Source of the DNA: a virus
IMG/VR virus record: IMGVR_UViG_3300009597_000014
Span: 1 to 64,000 of that record
DNA length: 64,000 bases
Reading direction: 5' to 3' (one strand)
The notes below the pieces were generated by a model, which worked only from the letters and a program-made list of their open reading frames with translations, did not search any database and was not told the DNA's origin. This document shows, piece by piece, positions 3,145-51,218 of the stretch (positions are counted from its first letter, which is position 1; each line of letters opens with the position of its first letter). The position numbers and the translations under genes were made by a program.

Positions 3145-4351
3145 AACAGCTGAAGCTGAAACCGAAACCATTGCTCAGGAAGAAAAGCCCAAAGGCAAAG
3201 CCGAGGAATCTAAAAAAGATTATCTCGAAATGTCTGACGAGGATTTTCTTAAAATTAATGGTCCTGAGAAATCAGAGAAACCTGTCCCAGAAAAGGTAGC
3301 TGGCGACGATAAGGCCGATGAAAGCGAGGACAGTAAGGTTGATAAAAAGGAGCAGGATACCAACACCAAGGATGAAACCAAGGCGACAGACGATAAGCCA
3401 GAGGAACCAAAGGAAGAGAAGAAGGCTAAGTCCGATTCTCCTGGTTCCAAGGTCGTAGTAGCTGAGTCGGAAGATAAAAAACCAAAGACTGATACTGTTG
3501 ATTATGAGGGATTTTTCAAACAAATTATGACGCCTTTCAAGGCGAATGGTAAAACCTTTGAGGTAAAAACTCCCGAAGAAGCCATTCGTCTAATGCAGAA
3601 AGGCGCCGGTTATGGTCGTAAAATCCAGGATATGCAGCCCCATCTTAAGGTGCTACGTATGCTGGAGAAAAATAATTTGCTTGATGAAAGTAAATTATCA
3701 TTTTTAATTGATTTGAATCAGAAAAATCCGGATGCAATTAAAAAATTAATTAAAGATGGTGGTATTGATCCCCTTGATTTGAATGCCGATGATAAAGTAA
3801 ACTACACACCGAAAAGCCATGCTGTCACTGACAAGGAAGTAGCGTTCCATCAAGCCGTAGCCGAGATCCAGACACAACCCGGTGGCTTTGAAACGCTTCG
3901 CCAAATCAATCAGACATGGGATCAAGAGAGCAAGGGATTGCTCTGGGAATCGCCTGAGATCTTCGAGATCATCCAGACCCAGCGAGACAATGGTGTTTAC
4001 AACCAGATCGTAGCTGAGATCGATCGTCAGAAGCTTCTTGGCACAATGCCGAATTCGACGCCGTTCCTACAAGCCTACAAGGTCGCCGGGGACCATCTGG
4101 TCAAGACCAATGGTTTTAAAGCGCCGATTCAGAACCAGCCTGTGACCAATGCCAATGGCAGTGGAAATGGTCAACAGCAGCCACAAGTGATCGCCACCCG
4201 TACAGCTGTACCGAAGTCTCAGGCTCAGAACAGCGATAAGGCTGCTACTGCATCGTCTACCAAGACGAGTACGAGCAAGCCTAACCTCGCCGTCAATCCA
4301 CTGGAAATGTCGGATGACGATTTCATGAAACAATTTAAAGGCCGGTTTTAG
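3083..4351 (+). CDS. N4 gp57-like protein (often annotated tape measure; probable capsid scaffold); true start may be 3122 or 3131
   Basis: Acidic disordered N-terminus, conserved PFKANGK..EAIRLMQKGAGY..K core; directly upstream of the major capsid gene. Confidence 0.8.
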   Translation: MMTTLTTGRENNGMSAMTPTETAEAETETIAQEEKPKGKAEESKKDYLEMSDEDFLKINGPEKSEKPVPEKVAGDDKADESEDSKVDKKEQDTNTKDETKATDDKPEEPKEEKKAKSDSPGSKVVVAESEDKKPKTDTVDYEGFFKQIMTPFKANGKTFEVKTPEEAIRLMQKGAGYGRKIQDMQPHLKVLRMLEKNNLLDESKLSFLIDLNQKNPDAIKKLIKDGGIDPLDLNADDKVNYTPKSHAVTDKEVAFHQAVAEIQTQPGGFETLRQINQTWDQESKGLLWESPEIFEIIQTQRDNGVYNQIVAEIDRQKLLGTMPNSTPFLQAYKVAGDHLVKTNGFKAPIQNQPVTNANGSGNGQQQPQVIATRTAVPKSQAQNSDKAATASSTKTSTSKPNLAVNPLEMSDDDFMKQFKGRF

Positions 4352-4376
4352 ATAATACCGACCGGAGGTATTACCA

Positions 4377-5576
4377 ATGTTGAATTATAATGCTCCCGCA
4401 TTTACCATCAGTGGTACCAAGTCCGATATTGACGCCACTGGCGGCGGTCAGATGCAGACCTTCTTCTGGCTCAAGAAGGCAATCATCACAGCTCGTAAAG
4501 AGCAGTATTTTATGCCGCTCTCCAATACGGTCAACATGCCGAAGCACTATGGCAAAACCATTAAGGTTTATGAATATGTGCCTCTGCTCGATGATCGTAA
4601 CATCAACGACATGGGTATCGATGCTGCTGGTGCAGTCATCGCCAATGGCAACCTCTATGGTTCGTCTAAGGACATCGGCACGATTACTGCCAAATTGCCA
4701 GTGCTTTCGGAAAACGGTGGACGTGTAAACCGTGTTGGTTTCACCCGTATTCAGCGTGAGGGTTCTCTCCAGAAATTTGGTTTCTTTACCGAATTCACAG
4801 CTGAGGCTCTTAACTTCGATTCTGACGACGAGTTGATGGATCATCTTAGCACCGAGCTTATGAATGGTGCTGTTGAGATCACCGAAGACGTACTCCAGAG
4901 GGATCTGCTCAATGGAGCCGGTGTCGTTGTCTACGCTGGAACAGCAACCTCCAATGCAACGATTACCGCTGAAGGTGCTGGTGCTGCCTTTATTGATTAC
5001 CAGGACCTGATGCGTCTTGATGCGATCCTGACCGATAACAGGACTCCCAAGCAGACTAAGATCATCACTGGTTCCAGGATGATTGATACCAAGGTCGTCA
5101 GCGGTGGACGTATCCTTTATGTCGGATCTGAATTGGTTCCGATGATCAAGGCCATGAAGGATCTGTTCAATAACCAGGCATTCATTCCGATCCAGCAATA
5201 TGGCGATGCCGGTACCATCATGAACGGTGAGATCGGGTCCATTGATGCTTTCCGCATCATCCAGGTACCCGAGATGCTGAACTGGGGTGGTGCTGGTGCT
5301 ACTGTCTCGGCCAACCCTGGTTATCGAGTCACTGGCACAAAGTACAACGTCTACCCCATGCTCTGTGTTGGTGATGATTCATTCGTGACGATCGGATTCG
5401 AGACCGATGGCAAGACAGTCAAGTTCTCTGTCATGACCAAAATGCCCGGTAAGGAAACTGCCGATCGCAATGATCCTTATGGCGAAACTGGTTTCTCGTC
5501 CATCAAGTGGTACTATGGTTTCTTGATGAAGAGGCCGGAACGTGTCGGTGTAATCAAGGGAGTGGCTCCGCTTTGA
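4377..5576 (+). CDS. Major capsid protein (N4 gp56-like)
   Basis: 399 aa; [47 protein letters not shown]; GGAGGT RBS. Confidence 0.97.
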
Positions 5577-46999: not shown

Positions 47000-47041
47000 A
47001 AAAAATAAGGGCGCCGCTCCCTAAGAGTCAGGAGCGACGCC
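47000..47041 (-). terminator. Rho-independent terminator after RNAP II subunit 2
   Basis: Minus strand GGCGTCGCTCC-tgactcttag-GGAGCGGCGCC-CTTATTTTT. Confidence 0.75.
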
Positions 47042-47047
47042 ATGTTA

Positions 47048-47843
47048 TCAGGAAAGTGCGTAGTTGGTAACTCGAATATCAGCAGGTAGTGTCGGATCGA
47101 TCTTGCCAGCTGTGATATGTTTTCCGGTGATCTGACCAACGATCGAACCAAGGATCTTGGATTCAGCTATTTCAGCCAGCAGATTATTATATTGCTGTCT
47201 GAGATCATTTCCATGGTTCGGAAGGCATCTGAAACAGTCATGGATGGAGATAACCTGGAATGGTTTATCTGGTAATGACCTGAGTAATTGTCTAATAATT
47301 TCAGGATTAACCAATCCCATATTATCAATGTTCAGATACTCCAGGATCCTAGCTGATAAGAATCCTGTCATTTGGTAGTTGATCCAGAGCTGTTGAACGA
47401 GCCTGTCGTTCTCGTATCTGGATCGGTGTCCTCCTCCACCTACGAATGCTAAACCCTGCAGTTTCTTGATCTTGATTGGATCGTAGTTACACCTTCTGTT
47501 CATTTCCCTGACGATCATGCCATCAATGGAATGAACCATGTTGGCTCCCAATGAGCGTCCTCCCTTGATGGGCATGTTCTCATTGAAGATAACGTCATAT
47601 GGTTCATCCAGGAATGTGACAGGTTCTATTATCTGACCCATTACCTTAACTTTCACATGGAAATTATCAGGTAATGTCCATTGATTAATCAGGGCTGTCG
47701 GATCCCAGATACCAAGCATGGTCTCATTGATTTCCCATGCTCCTGGTGCATTCTCCTGGATTGTCTCATAGAAGGTCCTGAGCAGTTCACCCTCGCCGAA
47801 TATCTGCTTGGGTGTGGCTGTGGACCCATAGAACGCTGTCATA
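47048..47843 (-). CDS. RNA polymerase II subunit 2 (N4 gp16), exon 2
   Basis: MTAFYGS (second half of motif B), ANMVHSIDG, motif C IHDCF; spliced product is 400 aa. Confidence 0.92.
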
Positions 47844-48620
47844 CAATATGTTCAACAGAAGTCGTTAATTTCTGCCAGCAGCTTTACCTGCATCTCCATG
47901 TTTCCAAGGAGTTCGGACTATATCATAATCCCGAAGGATCCCGTGCGCTTCGGTCCACTTGGACCTACTCTACTAGGTTCGATTTTCATCGCCGTTCGAT
48001 AGTCTCTGCACCTTCTGATATGCCAAGATATCTTCACACATACTCAGGAAAATTTCAGTTGCCATTTCACCTTTGGCTCTGTTTGCAGCCCATGAGAGCC
48101 ACTGTACATTACCCTCAATATATCCTTTTCCTGGTTCAATTTGATCCAAAGATAAGGAATGCATTGAGTCTTTTTCTAGTGAAAGGCTAACTCCTGTTAG
48201 ATTACATAAACCTTTTTGAGATTTATATACACTATACAGATAGTTATCTGTTAATTCTGGTAAAGGTCGTTTAAGTTTTACACATCTACTTTTCGCATCT
48301 TTTAATTTATGACGAATAGTAGACATTAAAACTCTATCTTCTAGTGGAATTAATTTAATTCTACCAGTACCTTGATAACCAGGATTTCTTTTCCTGAATT
48401 CTTTTGCATAATCATTATTACATGATTTGCAATAAGTGTGGTGGTTTTGCCTTGTAATAGCAAAACATATGAGATCTTTGATTTCACCACAACGTATGCA
48501 TAGCTTGGTTTGCATAGAAAGCTCCTAAGTTGCTTTCTACGTATCAGCTTGGCTCATGATTGTCCACAAGGGATGTTCCATGAGTTCACACGGTTTAAAG
48601 GCGACCATGACTAGTGGTTA
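47844..48620 (-). mobile_element. Group I self-splicing intron (777 nt) in the RNAP II subunit 2 gene
   Basis: IGS GUCAUGGUCGCC pairs with exon GGCGAU (U.G at the 5' site) and the 3' exon UAUGAC. P3 CCGUGUG/CGCACGG; P4 CUCAUG/CAUGAG; P7 GCAGAGACUA (48000-48009) with AUGAUAUAGUCC (47915-47926); terminal G. Splicing restores KQAI-MTAFYGS. Confidence 0.92.
47973..48515 (-). CDS. Intron-encoded homing endonuclease (HNH/beta-beta-alpha-Me type with Zn finger)
   Basis: CxxC...CxxC; QKGLCNLTG; SLDQIEPGKGYIEGNVQW...ANRAK. Confidence 0.85.
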   Translation of the reverse strand: MQTKLCIRCGEIKDLICFAITRQNHHTYCKSCNNDYAKEFRKRNPGYQGTGRIKLIPLEDRVLMSTIRHKLKDAKSRCVKLKRPLPELTDNYLYSVYKSQKGLCNLTGVSLSLEKDSMHSLSLDQIEPGKGYIEGNVQWLSWAANRAKGEMATEIFLSMCEDILAYQKVQRLSNGDENRT

Positions 48621-49027
48621 ATCGCCTGCTTGGTCTTTTTCCGGTCTATTTTCGCATTTGAGCCTAGTTTCTTGGCCATAGTGTTATAGATGGAGATGTA
48701 TGCGTCTTCGCGGTGGCCCGTGTCGATGACATTGCAGAGACTGGCGGCTTGTCTGTCGCAGGATAGAGCCGCCAGGATCTGTATGCCGGAACAGGTGGCA
48801 TCCAAACTGATTGGATACCCACACATCTTTCCTTCCTTGGCTTTTTCCCAAGCGACTATCCCAGCATAAAAAAGCGCTGGCTCTTCAGCCTTTGGAACCA
48901 GAGAATGAAGCTGTCCCTCATTCTCATCGAACCAAGAAAGACGATCATTCCAATTAGCCTTGTCGAGGCCAAAGTTACTAGCAATATCTATTTTGAGATA
49001 TTGCTGACCTGTAAATGTTTGTAGCAT
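48621..49027 (-). CDS. RNA polymerase II subunit 2 (N4 gp16), exon 1
   Basis: YLKIDIASNFGLDK, motif A LDATCSGIQ, R..TKQAI (first half of motif B). Confidence 0.92.
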
Positions 49028-49036
49028 GATAGCTCC

Positions 49037-49243
49037 TTAATAGCCGGGTATTTTCCGGCGGGTTAATTCTTTCTCCTCCTTGTCGAAGAGAATGAACAGT
49101 GTGTAGTCCTCTGGTTCACCAAAGTCTGATGCCCAGATTTCCATCCTTCCAGCCAGAGCCAGGAGATCTGGTTCGAATCCTGGACCCAGAGGCGGTTTAG
49201 CCACCATGGATTCATAGTTTGCACTTTGTTCCATCAGGTACAT
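49037..49243 (-). CDS. Hypothetical protein
   Basis: 68 aa; TAATG-coupled to the DUF4326 gene. Confidence 0.55.
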   Translation of the reverse strand: MYLMEQSANYESMVAKPPLGPGFEPDLLALAGRMEIWASDFGEPEDYTLFILFDKEEKELTRRKIPGY

Positions 49244-49617
49244 TATCCTGCATCTCCATAGGTTTGCGTGCATGCAAGACCTACGTGTTGACCACCGGTC
49301 ATTCCACAGAGGCCGCATTTGTTTTCCAGCTTGGCTGCTGCCTCGAGGAGCAGATCTCCATGGCAGGCCAATGGCTTGCAATAGCAGACCAGATGCTTGC
49401 CTTTGAGAGGCTCGAGATCCAGGTGAGGCAACACATGGACACGGAACATCTCGATGGATCGTTCTCTGCTTTCAGTGAAATACAGTGCCTTGCTGTTGGG
49501 ATTATGTGAGTAGGGATTTCCCCAAGGAGAACCTCTGCCGACATATACGGCATCATTAGGAGCCGTGTTATGTTTCTTATTATGGACTCTTGGTTTAGGA
49601 TTTCTAGGAGTTGTCAT
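49243..49617 (-). CDS. DUF4326 family protein
   Basis: VYVGRGSPWGNPY; LKGKHLVCYCKPLACHGDLL. Confidence 0.85.
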   Translation of the reverse strand: MTTPRNPKPRVHNKKHNTAPNDAVYVGRGSPWGNPYSHNPNSKALYFTESRERSIEMFRVHVLPHLDLEPLKGKHLVCYCKPLACHGDLLLEAAAKLENKCGLCGMTGGQHVGLACTQTYGDAG

Positions 49618-49802
49618 TCATCTTCTCCTAATTCTGTTTCTAGAAACTGGATCAATCCCTTAATAAAATCAGTATGTAATTGTTGATTTCTCCAGACAAT
49701 ATATTGCTCATCTCTGGACATGGCTTTGCCATATAGAAGTCGGAGTTGCTGCAGTTCTTCATTGGTAAGAAGAATTTCATTAGTGGGATGATTCTCATTC
49801 AT
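49614..49802 (-). CDS. Hypothetical protein
   Basis: 62 aa; coupled start/stop. Confidence 0.55.
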   Translation of the reverse strand: MNENHPTNEILLTNEELQQLRLLYGKAMSRDEQYIVWRNQQLHTDFIKGLIQFLETELGEDE

Positions 49803-49987
49803 TTTGTTACCTCTTGAAGTGCTTTTATTATGAAGAGCTCGATTAAACGGGCTGCTTCTTCGAATTTCTCCTCATCACCACGACAGACTCTGTGAAACAA
49901 GGAAGTTAATGCAGGTACAGGCTTTCCATCCACCAAGGTAGTTGGATCCTGGGTATGAAGTAGAATTTGTTGGATTTGCTCATTCAT
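49799..49987 (-). CDS. Hypothetical protein
   Basis: 62 aa; CAGGAG RBS, coupled. Confidence 0.55.
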   Translation of the reverse strand: MNEQIQQILLHTQDPTTLVDGKPVPALTSLFHRVCRGDEEKFEEAARLIELFIIKALQEVTK

Positions 49988-50793
49988 TTTGTTATCTCCT
50001 GATTGGCAAATTCTACCACTGCTTTATTCCAGCATGCTGCCTGATAATTAACATGATATCCTTGGCAATATGTCCTGCCTCGTTTATCATATTTATGGGT
50101 GAGCCAGAATTCACCCTCATTGGATAATCCCAGATGATTAAGAACATCATGGGCTGTCCGGTCATATTTTTCGAAGGCTTTCACCCTCTTCTTGTATTCC
50201 TCGATGTCTTCGTCCTGCTTGGGCTTGTCGAGGTGTCTCCATTTGTTCTTGATGGTGGTAGCTACCTGCTGGTTCAACCTGAATTTGATTCTGTTTAGGC
50301 TATTTAAGTGATCCAGGCAGACATCCTCATCATGGTGATTATGTCTTAGAATCACTGAGTTATGACTCGTGTAATAACCCGTGTCATGATTAGTCCTCAA
50401 TATCCTTGGTTCCACGACCATAGGCAGTGGATATTGATACCGATCGATGTCGTCCTGCACGTCTTGACTGATGTCCCATCTAACGATGAACTGTTTCTGG
50501 ATGGGGCTCCAGTTGGCCAGATCTGCCCGTACAGCAGCATCTAGGGCATTGGCTGTCCGTTGTGGGTCTCCATCAAAATGTCTCATCAGGATGCCTGCCA
50601 TGGTTGGCAGAGTAGCTCTCTTGTGAAGAGCCATCTGAACCAGGAAGTCGAATCCGAACTCCATATCGATCTTGTGCTCGATCATGTGAGCCTTGAAGTC
50701 GAATTCCTTCTCCGATTCGAAGTCGTCTCGTATGCGAGTGAACAGCTGGTTCTTGTGGAACAGCTGCTCGATAGAGATTTGAAACTCAAGCAT
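49984..50793 (-). CDS. RNA polymerase II subunit 1 (N4 gp15)
   Basis: YQYPLPMVV.P, THKYDKRGRTYCQGYHVNYQ (DxRGR motif). Start at MLEFQ (AAGGAG RBS) gives 269 aa; the frame is open from 50952. Confidence 0.93.
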   Translation of the reverse strand: MLEFQISIEQLFHKNQLFTRIRDDFESEKEFDFKAHMIEHKIDMEFGFDFLVQMALHKRATLPTMAGILMRHFDGDPQRTANALDAAVRADLANWSPIQKQFIVRWDISQDVQDDIDRYQYPLPMVVEPRILRTNHDTGYYTSHNSVILRHNHHDEDVCLDHLNSLNRIKFRLNQQVATTIKNKWRHLDKPKQDEDIEEYKKRVKAFEKYDRTAHDVLNHLGLSNEGEFWLTHKYDKRGRTYCQGYHVNYQAACWNKAVVEFANQEITK

Positions 50794-50948
50794 GGATTTC
50801 TCCTTTACTGGTTCGATTGTTTTCATGGGTGGCGGTAGTAATGGGACTATCGGAGGCAATGAAAAAGGCTTCCGAGTTTCCTCTAGAAGCCTTAATTCAT
50901 GAACCAGGATAATGCCGAGTTGGAGTATTTTAATAATAGCTCCTACAT

Positions 50949-51218
50949 TCATGTGATCTCCCGATATTTCTCCAACAGTTTCCTGAGTTTATGTTCATCG
51001 AAACCAGGTGAAAGATAATCAGACCCTTCAGGTCCGAATCTGATACCTGCTGTTATTTCCTTATTACCTGGGAGGATATAGGCGTCGAGTTTGTCTCCAT
51101 ATTGGAACCAGCGAGAAATAGAATCTGGTCCATGTGGGTAACACTCGGCCAGCTCCTCTAGCTGGACATATGTGATTTCATCCTTCCAGGGATTATCTTC
51201 ATGCCAGTGGGTAATCAT
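50949..51218 (-). CDS. Hypothetical protein
   Basis: 89 aa; GIRFGPEGSDYLSP. Confidence 0.6.
   Translation of the reverse strand: MITHWHEDNPWKDEITYVQLEELAECYPHGPDSISRWFQYGDKLDAYILPGNKEITAGIRFGPEGSDYLSPGFDEHKLRKLLEKYREIT

Follow-up and report, generated by a model that had tools for sequence, protein, structure and literature searches.

A probable mobile group I intron of the T4 td type within catalytic motif B of the RNAP2 gene of an N4-like phage

The stretch of DNA considered here, positions 1 to 64,000 of the IMG/VR virus record IMGVR_UViG_3300009597_000014 (64,000 nucleotides (nt), hereafter the window), raises a simple question: what interrupts its gene for RNAP2, the N4 gp16-like large subunit of the middle RNA polymerase, for 777 nt in the middle of catalytic motif B, and could one polymerase subunit still be made from it? 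We put the probability at roughly 90% that the interruption is a mobile, self-splicing group I intron of subgroup IA, similar to the intron of the T4 td gene. That estimate starts from what is plain to see: the anatomy of the element, a conserved and covarying fold, an exact junction, and a patchy distribution among relatives. The virus record is complete (74,834 bp with terminal repeats) and comes from a freshwater or groundwater metagenome; we call the phage N4-like because it carries RNAP1 and RNAP2 genes as well as a virion polymerase frame of 3,884 codons. RNAP2, the intron, and the open reading frame (ORF) inside it lie on the minus strand, and all coordinates are those of the window. 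The main features are the following, with lengths of proteins in amino acids (aa).

48621..49027, minus strand: RNAP2 (N4 gp16-like) exon 1; PF00940 at E 2e-16, phrog_2051 positions 2-137, 6dt7_B residues 1-141
47844..48620, minus strand: probable group I intron, 777 nt, subgroup IA (T4-td-like); from an Rfam match, fold, covariation, and intron-less alleles joined exactly there
47973..48515, minus strand: putative endonuclease gene carried by the intron (180 aa), within the P6 loop; best match phrog_1035 'endonuclease VII', E 2.5e-27, also phrog_3322, phrog_2255, phrog_3118 (HNH)
47048..47843, minus strand: RNAP2 exon 2; phrog_2051 positions 138-401, 6dt7_B residues 142-404

The two exons are colinear with the whole of N4 RNAP2 (PDB 6dt7 chain B), exon 1 matching residues 1-141 (...CKQAI) and exon 2 residues 142-404 (MTALYGS...), with no residue lost or doubled at the join; together they encode 400 aa, the length that a sequence-only reading of this DNA had given for the spliced gp16. 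Exon 1 supplies residues 1-135 and two bases of Ile136 and holds motif A and the R-x3-K half of motif B; its PF00940 match is to the N-terminal third of T7-type RNA polymerases. The first base of exon 2 finishes the Ile codon and is followed by 264 codons (47842-47048) from MTAFYGS, the M-x3-Y-G half of motif B, which take in motif C (HDCF) and the stop codon. Left unspliced, the exon 1 frame has 138 codons (49027-48611), with ...DRKKTKQAI continuing through N and H into the intron and then meeting UAG at 48611-48613. The insertion is in phase 2 of the Ile codon in mid motif B (R-x3-K-x2-I/M-x3-Y-G), where the break R-K-K-T-K-Q-A-I / M-T-A-F-Y-G-S falls within the R-x3-K-x7-Y-G signature of motif B (the O-helix) of single-subunit polymerases, as had been claimed. 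HMMER aligned the motif B stretch of an uninterrupted relative to that of the yeast mitochondrial RNAP (...RKVVKQTVMTNVYG). We take the T7 equivalents to be R627, K631, and Y639, with the break falling between V634 and M635. Motifs A, B, and C and an RNAP1 gene nearby complete the identification of this gene as RNAP2.

Relatives that lack the insertion fix its ends. Seventeen IMG/VR relatives of exon 2 were compared, one of which is truncated, leaving 16 with a full-length gene; RNAP2 is uninterrupted in 14 of these, and the halves abut exactly at the predicted junction. The splice sites proposed beforehand (48620 and 47844) prove right base for base. One empty allele, in L023, reads CAGGCGAT-TATGAC, which is the ligation product predicted for the window. 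The same site is occupied by an 819-nt intron with an ORF in contig L034 and by a natural 325-nt ORF-less intron in contig L025 (IMGVR_UViG_3300013132_000173; L025:2176-2500). We note that L025 retains the ribosome-binding site, the start codon, and the final ~20 codons of the endonuclease gene, which fits deletion of that gene in a homing cycle. Misassembly is excluded, since contigs from three other metagenome runs span both intron junctions with identical sequence; the contigs of four DNA runs held solely identical intron-bearing pieces and no joint that skips the intron.

The intron opens with UAACC (U at 48620) and closes with an omega-G at 47844, and a terminal G is present in seven of seven homologues. 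Its parts are placed as follows.

48600..48626, minus strand: P1 hairpin, 5' exon GGCGAU (48621-48626) with guide GUCGCC (48600-48605), U.G at the splice site
48606-48611, minus strand: P10 guide GUCAUG, complementary to 3' exon UAUGAC (47838-47843)
48542..48592, minus strand: 5' core half, from RNAalifold on seven ORF-less constructs and pair counts with controls
48587-48592, minus strand: P3 5' strand, CGUGUG
48578-48584 with 48553-48559, minus strand: P4
48571-48573 with 48563-48565, minus strand: P5
48542-48547, minus strand: P6 5' strand, CUGAUA
47856..48020, minus strand: 3' core half, from Rfam, RNAalifold, pair counts, and alignment to the T4 td 3' half
48015-48020, minus strand: P6 3' strand
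47999-48004, minus strand: P7 5' strand, GACUAU
47980-47991, minus strand: P7.1
47952-47965, minus strand: P7.2
47942-47947, minus strand: P3 3' strand, CGCACG
47927-47940, minus strand: P8
47916-47921, minus strand: P7 3' strand, AUAGUC
47894-47911, minus strand: P9
47878-47891, minus strand: P9.1
47856-47874, minus strand: P9.2

All core helices, together with the invariant elements P7, J8/7, and the terminal G, are intact in the window copy. Between P7 and the P3 3' strand come the extra helices P7.1 and P7.2; both show compensatory changes, and both align to T4 td, an intron that T4's own record classes as group IA. Michel and Westhof reportedly took these two helices as the defining criterion of subgroup IA in 1990. 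Two further pairings do not form part of the model: a 4-bp CCUA/UAGG pairing beside P7.2 was dropped because it is not kept in the homologues, and a GUGCA/UGUAU helix, which RNAalifold proposed for the 3' half alone, was left out.

The occupied sites in other phages allow this fold to be judged by comparison. By blastn, the intron and its ORF are found at this RNAP2 site in Burkholderia phages HN02, HN04, and HN05, in Achromobacter phages JWAlpha and JWDelta, and in Vibrio phages phi 1, pVco-5, and pVco-7. The six homologues compared were those of JWAlpha, Burkholderia phage HN04, Vibrio phages phi 1 and pVco-5, and the IMG/VR contigs L025 and L034. The guide shifts together with the exon codons across them: GGCGAU faces GUCGCC in the window, GGCCGU faces GCGGCC in HN04 and JWAlpha, GGCCAU faces GUGGCC in L025 and L034, and CCUU faces GAGG in the Vibrio phages. 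Of two features described from the window alone, the U.G pair at the 5' splice site is borne out by this covariation of guide and exon, and the guide said to span the ligated junction is found as GUCAUG-GUCGCC (48600-48611), which pairs with both exons. When the seven genes are spliced in silico at the inferred sites, each has an open frame, of 400-412 aa, and all seven have an in-frame stop three codons inside the intron.

RNAalifold on the seven ORF-less homologues recovers P1, P3, P4, P5, P6, P7.1, P7.2, P8, P9, P9.1, and P9.2; P7 (GACUAU/AUAGUC), which is pseudoknotted with P3, is invariant across them. Covariation was counted in the seven homologous introns, with the ORF-bearing loop taken out before alignment, and was set against shuffles and against slid partners, in which the partner positions are displaced. 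For the 3' half, 89.8% of cells are paired (26-42% with slid partners), and 22 of 38 pairs have changes on both sides, a count matched by 0 of 500 shuffles. P1 and P3-P6 give 92.8% (32-43% slid), with both-side changes in 15 of 30 pairs and 0 of 1000 shuffles matching; the P3 and P6 pairs in this count span the ORF. Covariation is beyond chance, because the pair counts are far above both the shuffled and the slid controls, and the earlier statement that P3, P4, and P7 are intact stands. Rfam family RF00028 matches the window at 47894-48120 (minus strand) with 32.1 bits, at E 1.2e-5 in a searched stretch of 3.5 kb and at 2e-4 in the whole window, and the match takes in GAGACUA and AUAUAGUC of P7. 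A search with group I models, which the sequence-only reading had proposed for 47844-48620, thus returned a match, but one below the curated (gathering) threshold of 50 bits. A sub-threshold score is expected because a 540-nt ORF lies in P6, and the proven ORF-bearing T4 introns also fall short in the same search, td at 40.3 bits and nrdB at 35.7 bits. The ORF-less homologue in L025 reaches 49.8 bits (E 9e-12) over the full RF00028 model, P1 included.

Compared with the window copy, the JWAlpha, HN, and Vibrio set has 66-78% identity in the ribozyme, about 66% in the DNA of the endonuclease gene, and 37-54% in the exon protein. The ribozyme is better conserved than the exons, while the endonuclease-gene DNA has diverged about as much as they have, a comparison that cannot tell repeated transfer from old inheritance followed by losses. 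In Vibrio phages phi 1 and pVco-5 the intron bears a further hairpin, P2, that shows a compensatory change (UAUACA/UGUAUA against UAUGCA/UGCAUA), and exon 2 of both reads MTHFYFS, with Phe in place of the normally invariant Gly of the motif B Y-G. Other phage genes hold members of this ribozyme family, frequently together with the same endonuclease family, among them the genes for DNA polymerase in a T4-like phage (G2285) and in Salmonella phage SSE121. The ribozyme family is also seen in Pseudomonas PaoP5-like phages and in the Pectobacterium phages phiTE and CB7, and in Salmonella phage Vi06 the DNA polymerase gene has a match to the 5' part of the intron. Many unrelated phages (PaoP5, K5, K8, phiTE, CB7, and Acinetobacter phages) have the ribozyme 3' core, often beside an 'endonuclease VII' gene, and the site is unannotated in many of these records.

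The ORF within the intron bears on its mobility. Its product carries a zinc-ribbon-like Cys4 motif at the N-terminus and the conserved block SLDxI..GY..NVQWL..NRAKG at the C-terminus, the final ~48 nt of the frame double as the P6 3' strand, the P7 5' strand, and P7.1, and the ORF is intact in five homologues at 49-54% identity. Comparison with HNH/His-Me finger families gave phrog_1035 at E 2.5e-27 and weaker matches to phrog_3118 and phrog_2255, with a conserved motif that has no obvious first His. In the ESM Atlas the protein fell among viral clusters without a name, and the HNH and EndoVII clusters there gave weak leads; sequence and profile searches of the PDB gave nothing significant, with PacI only at E 0.3. 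Context and the PHROG family names point to a homing endonuclease. The start of the ORF lies in a predicted hairpin.

48513..48541, minus strand: predicted start-codon hairpin, from minimum-free-energy folds; GGAG ribosome-binding site at 48522-48525, partly in the loop and partly in the 3' stem

The AUG is within the stem in six of the seven homologues, and the stem sequences differ between phages. Such a hairpin probably holds back translation of the endonuclease as long as the RNA is unspliced; it recalls the delayed translation of I-TevI in T4. With its ORF in the P6 loop, a patchy presence (2 carriers and 14 empty alleles among the 16 relatives), and an ORF-less decay form, the element would be a selfish homing intron by the usual marks of that class. 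In all likelihood the endonuclease cleaves the empty RNAP2 alleles of co-infecting relatives close to the motif B codons, which would lead to homing.

From these features we infer splicing, endonuclease activity, and the timing of expression along the following lines. The pre-mRNA would be made early, by the injected virion polymerase, as judged from N4 biology. On folding of the intron, the guide GUCGCC would pair with the exon end GGCGAU to form P1, and free guanosine bound in P7 would attack after the U of the U.G pair. The guide GUCAUG would hold the 3' exon UAUGAC (P10), the terminal G (47844) would then take the G site, and ligation of the exons would yield ...CAGGCGAU-UAUGACAGCG..., encoding a 400-aa RNAP2 with motif B restored. 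Ribosomes on unspliced RNA would halt at the UAG three codons into the intron, and the 180-aa endonuclease would be translated from its own GGAG site with the start codon in the hairpin. An intron-less allele, once cut, would be repaired by copying the intron in.

A second site in the same gene was also found to be occupied. Erwinia phage MIF8 (PP700702.1) has a different group I intron (L005:1884-2131, RF00028 94.4 bits) after ...TVHDA in motif C, with an endonuclease gene downstream of the intron core and a short 3' exon that resumes near L005:2831. Pseudomonas phage ZC08 (KU356691.1) has a group I intron of 88.9 bits at the motif C site (L040:2997-3262), followed by an endonuclease gene (3310-3939) and then a 66-codon 3' exon (4201-4401). 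Both introns are unannotated in their records. They share with the window intron the host gene, the phage family, and the carriage of an endonuclease gene, but they sit just after H-D, at about residue 338, and their endonuclease genes belong to another family and lie downstream of the ribozyme core rather than in P6. In Vibrio phages D283a, D265, and D98b, RNAP2 breaks at about residue 337, the same residue as the motif C site. In Vibrio phage 1.169.O (MG592536.1) RNAP2 is likewise split at motif B; an ORF of 173 codons separates the halves, and the group I match there is weak (L041:2189-2438, 30.6 bits, E 1e-4). Across RNAP2 homologues in 507 phage records, at least 80% of the protein is in one piece in 447, so interrupted RNAP2 genes are a minority, at most about one in eight. 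It is a tentative and somewhat doubtful extension of the mobile-intron reading that introns have colonised motifs B and C of RNAP2 across the Schitoviridae and that their endonucleases serve as weapons against intron-less rivals, to the benefit of the carrier. If so, cutting a rival's RNAP2 gene would block the rival's middle transcription; the endonuclease gp210 of phage PhiPA3 has been shown to act in this way against PhiKZ (PMC11620839).

Several points weigh against a mobile, self-splicing intron at this locus. The window intron scores below the RF00028 threshold, its P5 has only 3 bp, and P9 contains one U-U mismatch. The seven sequences behind the covariation are few and related, and the shuffle controls overstate significance for that reason; the slid-partner control is free of this flaw of kinship, is the fairer of the two, and is equally clear. 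The endonuclease matches no Pfam or NCBIfam family, and an AlphaFold2 model built on a five-sequence alignment is too poor to confirm a nuclease fold, with a mean predicted local distance difference test score (pLDDT) of 54 and values below 50 over residues 100-180, the catalytic half. Among the runs listed as carrying the stretch, none is an RNA run.

Three other accounts have to be set against these points and against the evidence above. The phage might, as the sequence-only reading suggested, have co-opted splicing as a checkpoint that times or gates its early-to-middle switch by GTP or by folding conditions. If the intron is real, it does follow logically that no active RNAPII is made unless splicing occurs, and the hairpin over the endonuclease start codon implies some control of expression within the element. 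Yet the intron is absent from 14 of the 16 full-length IMG/VR relatives, and RNAP2 is in one piece in 447 of the 507 records; because most close relatives do without it, the N4-type programme cannot require the intron. Both the distribution and the decay form that lacks the ORF are in keeping with selfish homing, and no sensing feature is seen in the element. Nothing in the data calls for a regulatory checkpoint, and we consider it unlikely.

A free-standing endonuclease gene could instead have split RNAP2, so that the 138-aa and 264-aa halves, each translated on its own, work with RNAP1 as a polymerase in three pieces. The NrdA halves of phage Aeh1 are a precedent for such genes in pieces. 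In support, exon 2 begins with an AUG, GenBank records list the halves as separate genes, and N4 RNAPII is already a split T7-like enzyme of two polypeptides (discussed in PMC5418858). That AUG, on the other hand, is the conserved motif B Met, which every intron-less allele also has; the AUG is not preceded by a Shine-Dalgarno sequence, and the bases upstream are those of P9.2 and the conserved 3' terminus of the ribozyme. A compensated group I fold and a guide that tracks the exons would be needless in a mere spacer, and L025 keeps its 325-nt ribozyme after loss of the endonuclease gene. We regard this arrangement as very improbable.

Least probable of all is a group I-derived insert that no longer splices and leaves RNAP2 a pseudogene in a defective or helper-dependent phage: the low Rfam score, the short P5, the P9 mismatch, and the want of an RNA run among those listed for the stretch would agree with it, but the core helices and the invariant elements P7, J8/7, and terminal G are all preserved, the two exons have open and conserved frames, the genome is complete, the sequence is identical across 2017-2025 metagenomes as for a replicating phage, the proven T4 introns have similar Rfam scores, and cultured JWAlpha, phi 1, and HN04 grow with the same interruption.

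The partner subunit of the heterodimeric middle polymerase is encoded upstream of RNAP2.

49984..50952, minus strand: RNAP1 (N4 gp15-like); phrog_2166 'N4-like RNA polymerase' at E 1e-92

RNAP1 and RNAP2 are separated by three small genes (49243-49987, minus strand), one of them encoding a DUF4326 protein (49243-49617, E 9e-17), whereas in N4 the two polymerase genes are adjacent. The genome has no further group I intron at E <= 0.01, and a megablast of 24 kb returned no near-identical phage record. Twenty-four listed metagenome runs of 2017-2025, from groundwater, freshwater sediment, and sediment, contain DNA nearly identical to window positions 47000-49100, and some of these runs may themselves be the source of the virus record; the phage appears to be persistent in groundwater and sediment habitats.

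Interruptions of RNAP2 have been in the literature for some time. The JWAlpha paper of 2014 saw one and raised the question of whether the gene 'is still functional' (PMC3915230), the same doubt about a divided RNAP2 came back in a comparative study (PMC4193335), another paper counted 'two RNAP2' (PMC4837373), and the ZC08 paper of 2017 made an endonuclease insertion in RNAP2 the basis of an evolutionary scenario (PMC5418858). The sequence-only reading knew of no intron in an N4-type RNAP II. No paper that calls any of these splits a group I intron was found in a full-text literature search, whose coverage leaves out most subscription journals, but the interruption itself is already present in published genomes (JWAlpha in 2014, phi 1, pVco-5, and HN04). 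A spliced RNAP2 would settle a small open point in N4-like genomics, with the 'divided' or 'two RNAP2' genes becoming ordinary intron-containing genes for one full-length subunit, and annotation pipelines should join the RNAP2 exons. It would also add a T7-like RNA polymerase of the single-subunit family to the known hosts of phage group I introns, alongside DNA-metabolism genes and multisubunit polymerases, and two active-site motifs of that enzyme would be homing targets. Cultured carriers exist, and splicing, homing, and competition are therefore directly testable. No new mechanism seems to be revealed; the element seems to be of an ordinary kind for phages, in a host gene where it has seemingly never been named.

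Among the closest known counterparts are the split genes of JWAlpha and JWDelta, HN02, HN04, and HN05, and phi 1, pVco-5, and pVco-7, which have a homologous intron and endonuclease gene at the identical RNAP2 codon; their records list two polymerase genes and a hypothetical or endonuclease gene, and none annotates an intron. The gp210 intron of PhiPA3, in a multisubunit RNAP beta gene, is also a homing-endonuclease intron at conserved catalytic residues of a phage RNA polymerase (PMC11620839), and the introns of groups I and II within the virion RNAP beta' of AR9 and PBS1 have the same kind of placement (PMC12350094). Those enzymes are multisubunit and of bacterial type, from jumbo phages, whereas the present one belongs to the T7-like single-subunit family, in a 75-kb podovirus. 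The T4 td intron resembles the window intron in the order of its helices, including P7.1 and P7.2 between P7 and the P3 3' strand, in an endonuclease gene in the P6 loop (I-TevI in td, in the P6a loop), in an in-frame stop soon after the 5' splice site, in an Rfam score brought below threshold by the ORF, and in its seat in the catalytic region of an essential phage enzyme. The strings GAGUAGG..AAGU, GAUAUAGUC, AUUAACGAC, and UGAACAU(A/U)UG-3' (UGAACAUAUUG-3') are near-identical in the two, almost position for position. The host gene differs, encoding an RNA polymerase here and thymidylate synthase in td; the window intron lacks P2, which the Vibrio homologues have; and its putative endonuclease is of the PHROG 'endonuclease VII/HNH' family rather than GIY-YIG, with a frame that extends into the P6 3' strand, the P7 5' strand, and P7.1.

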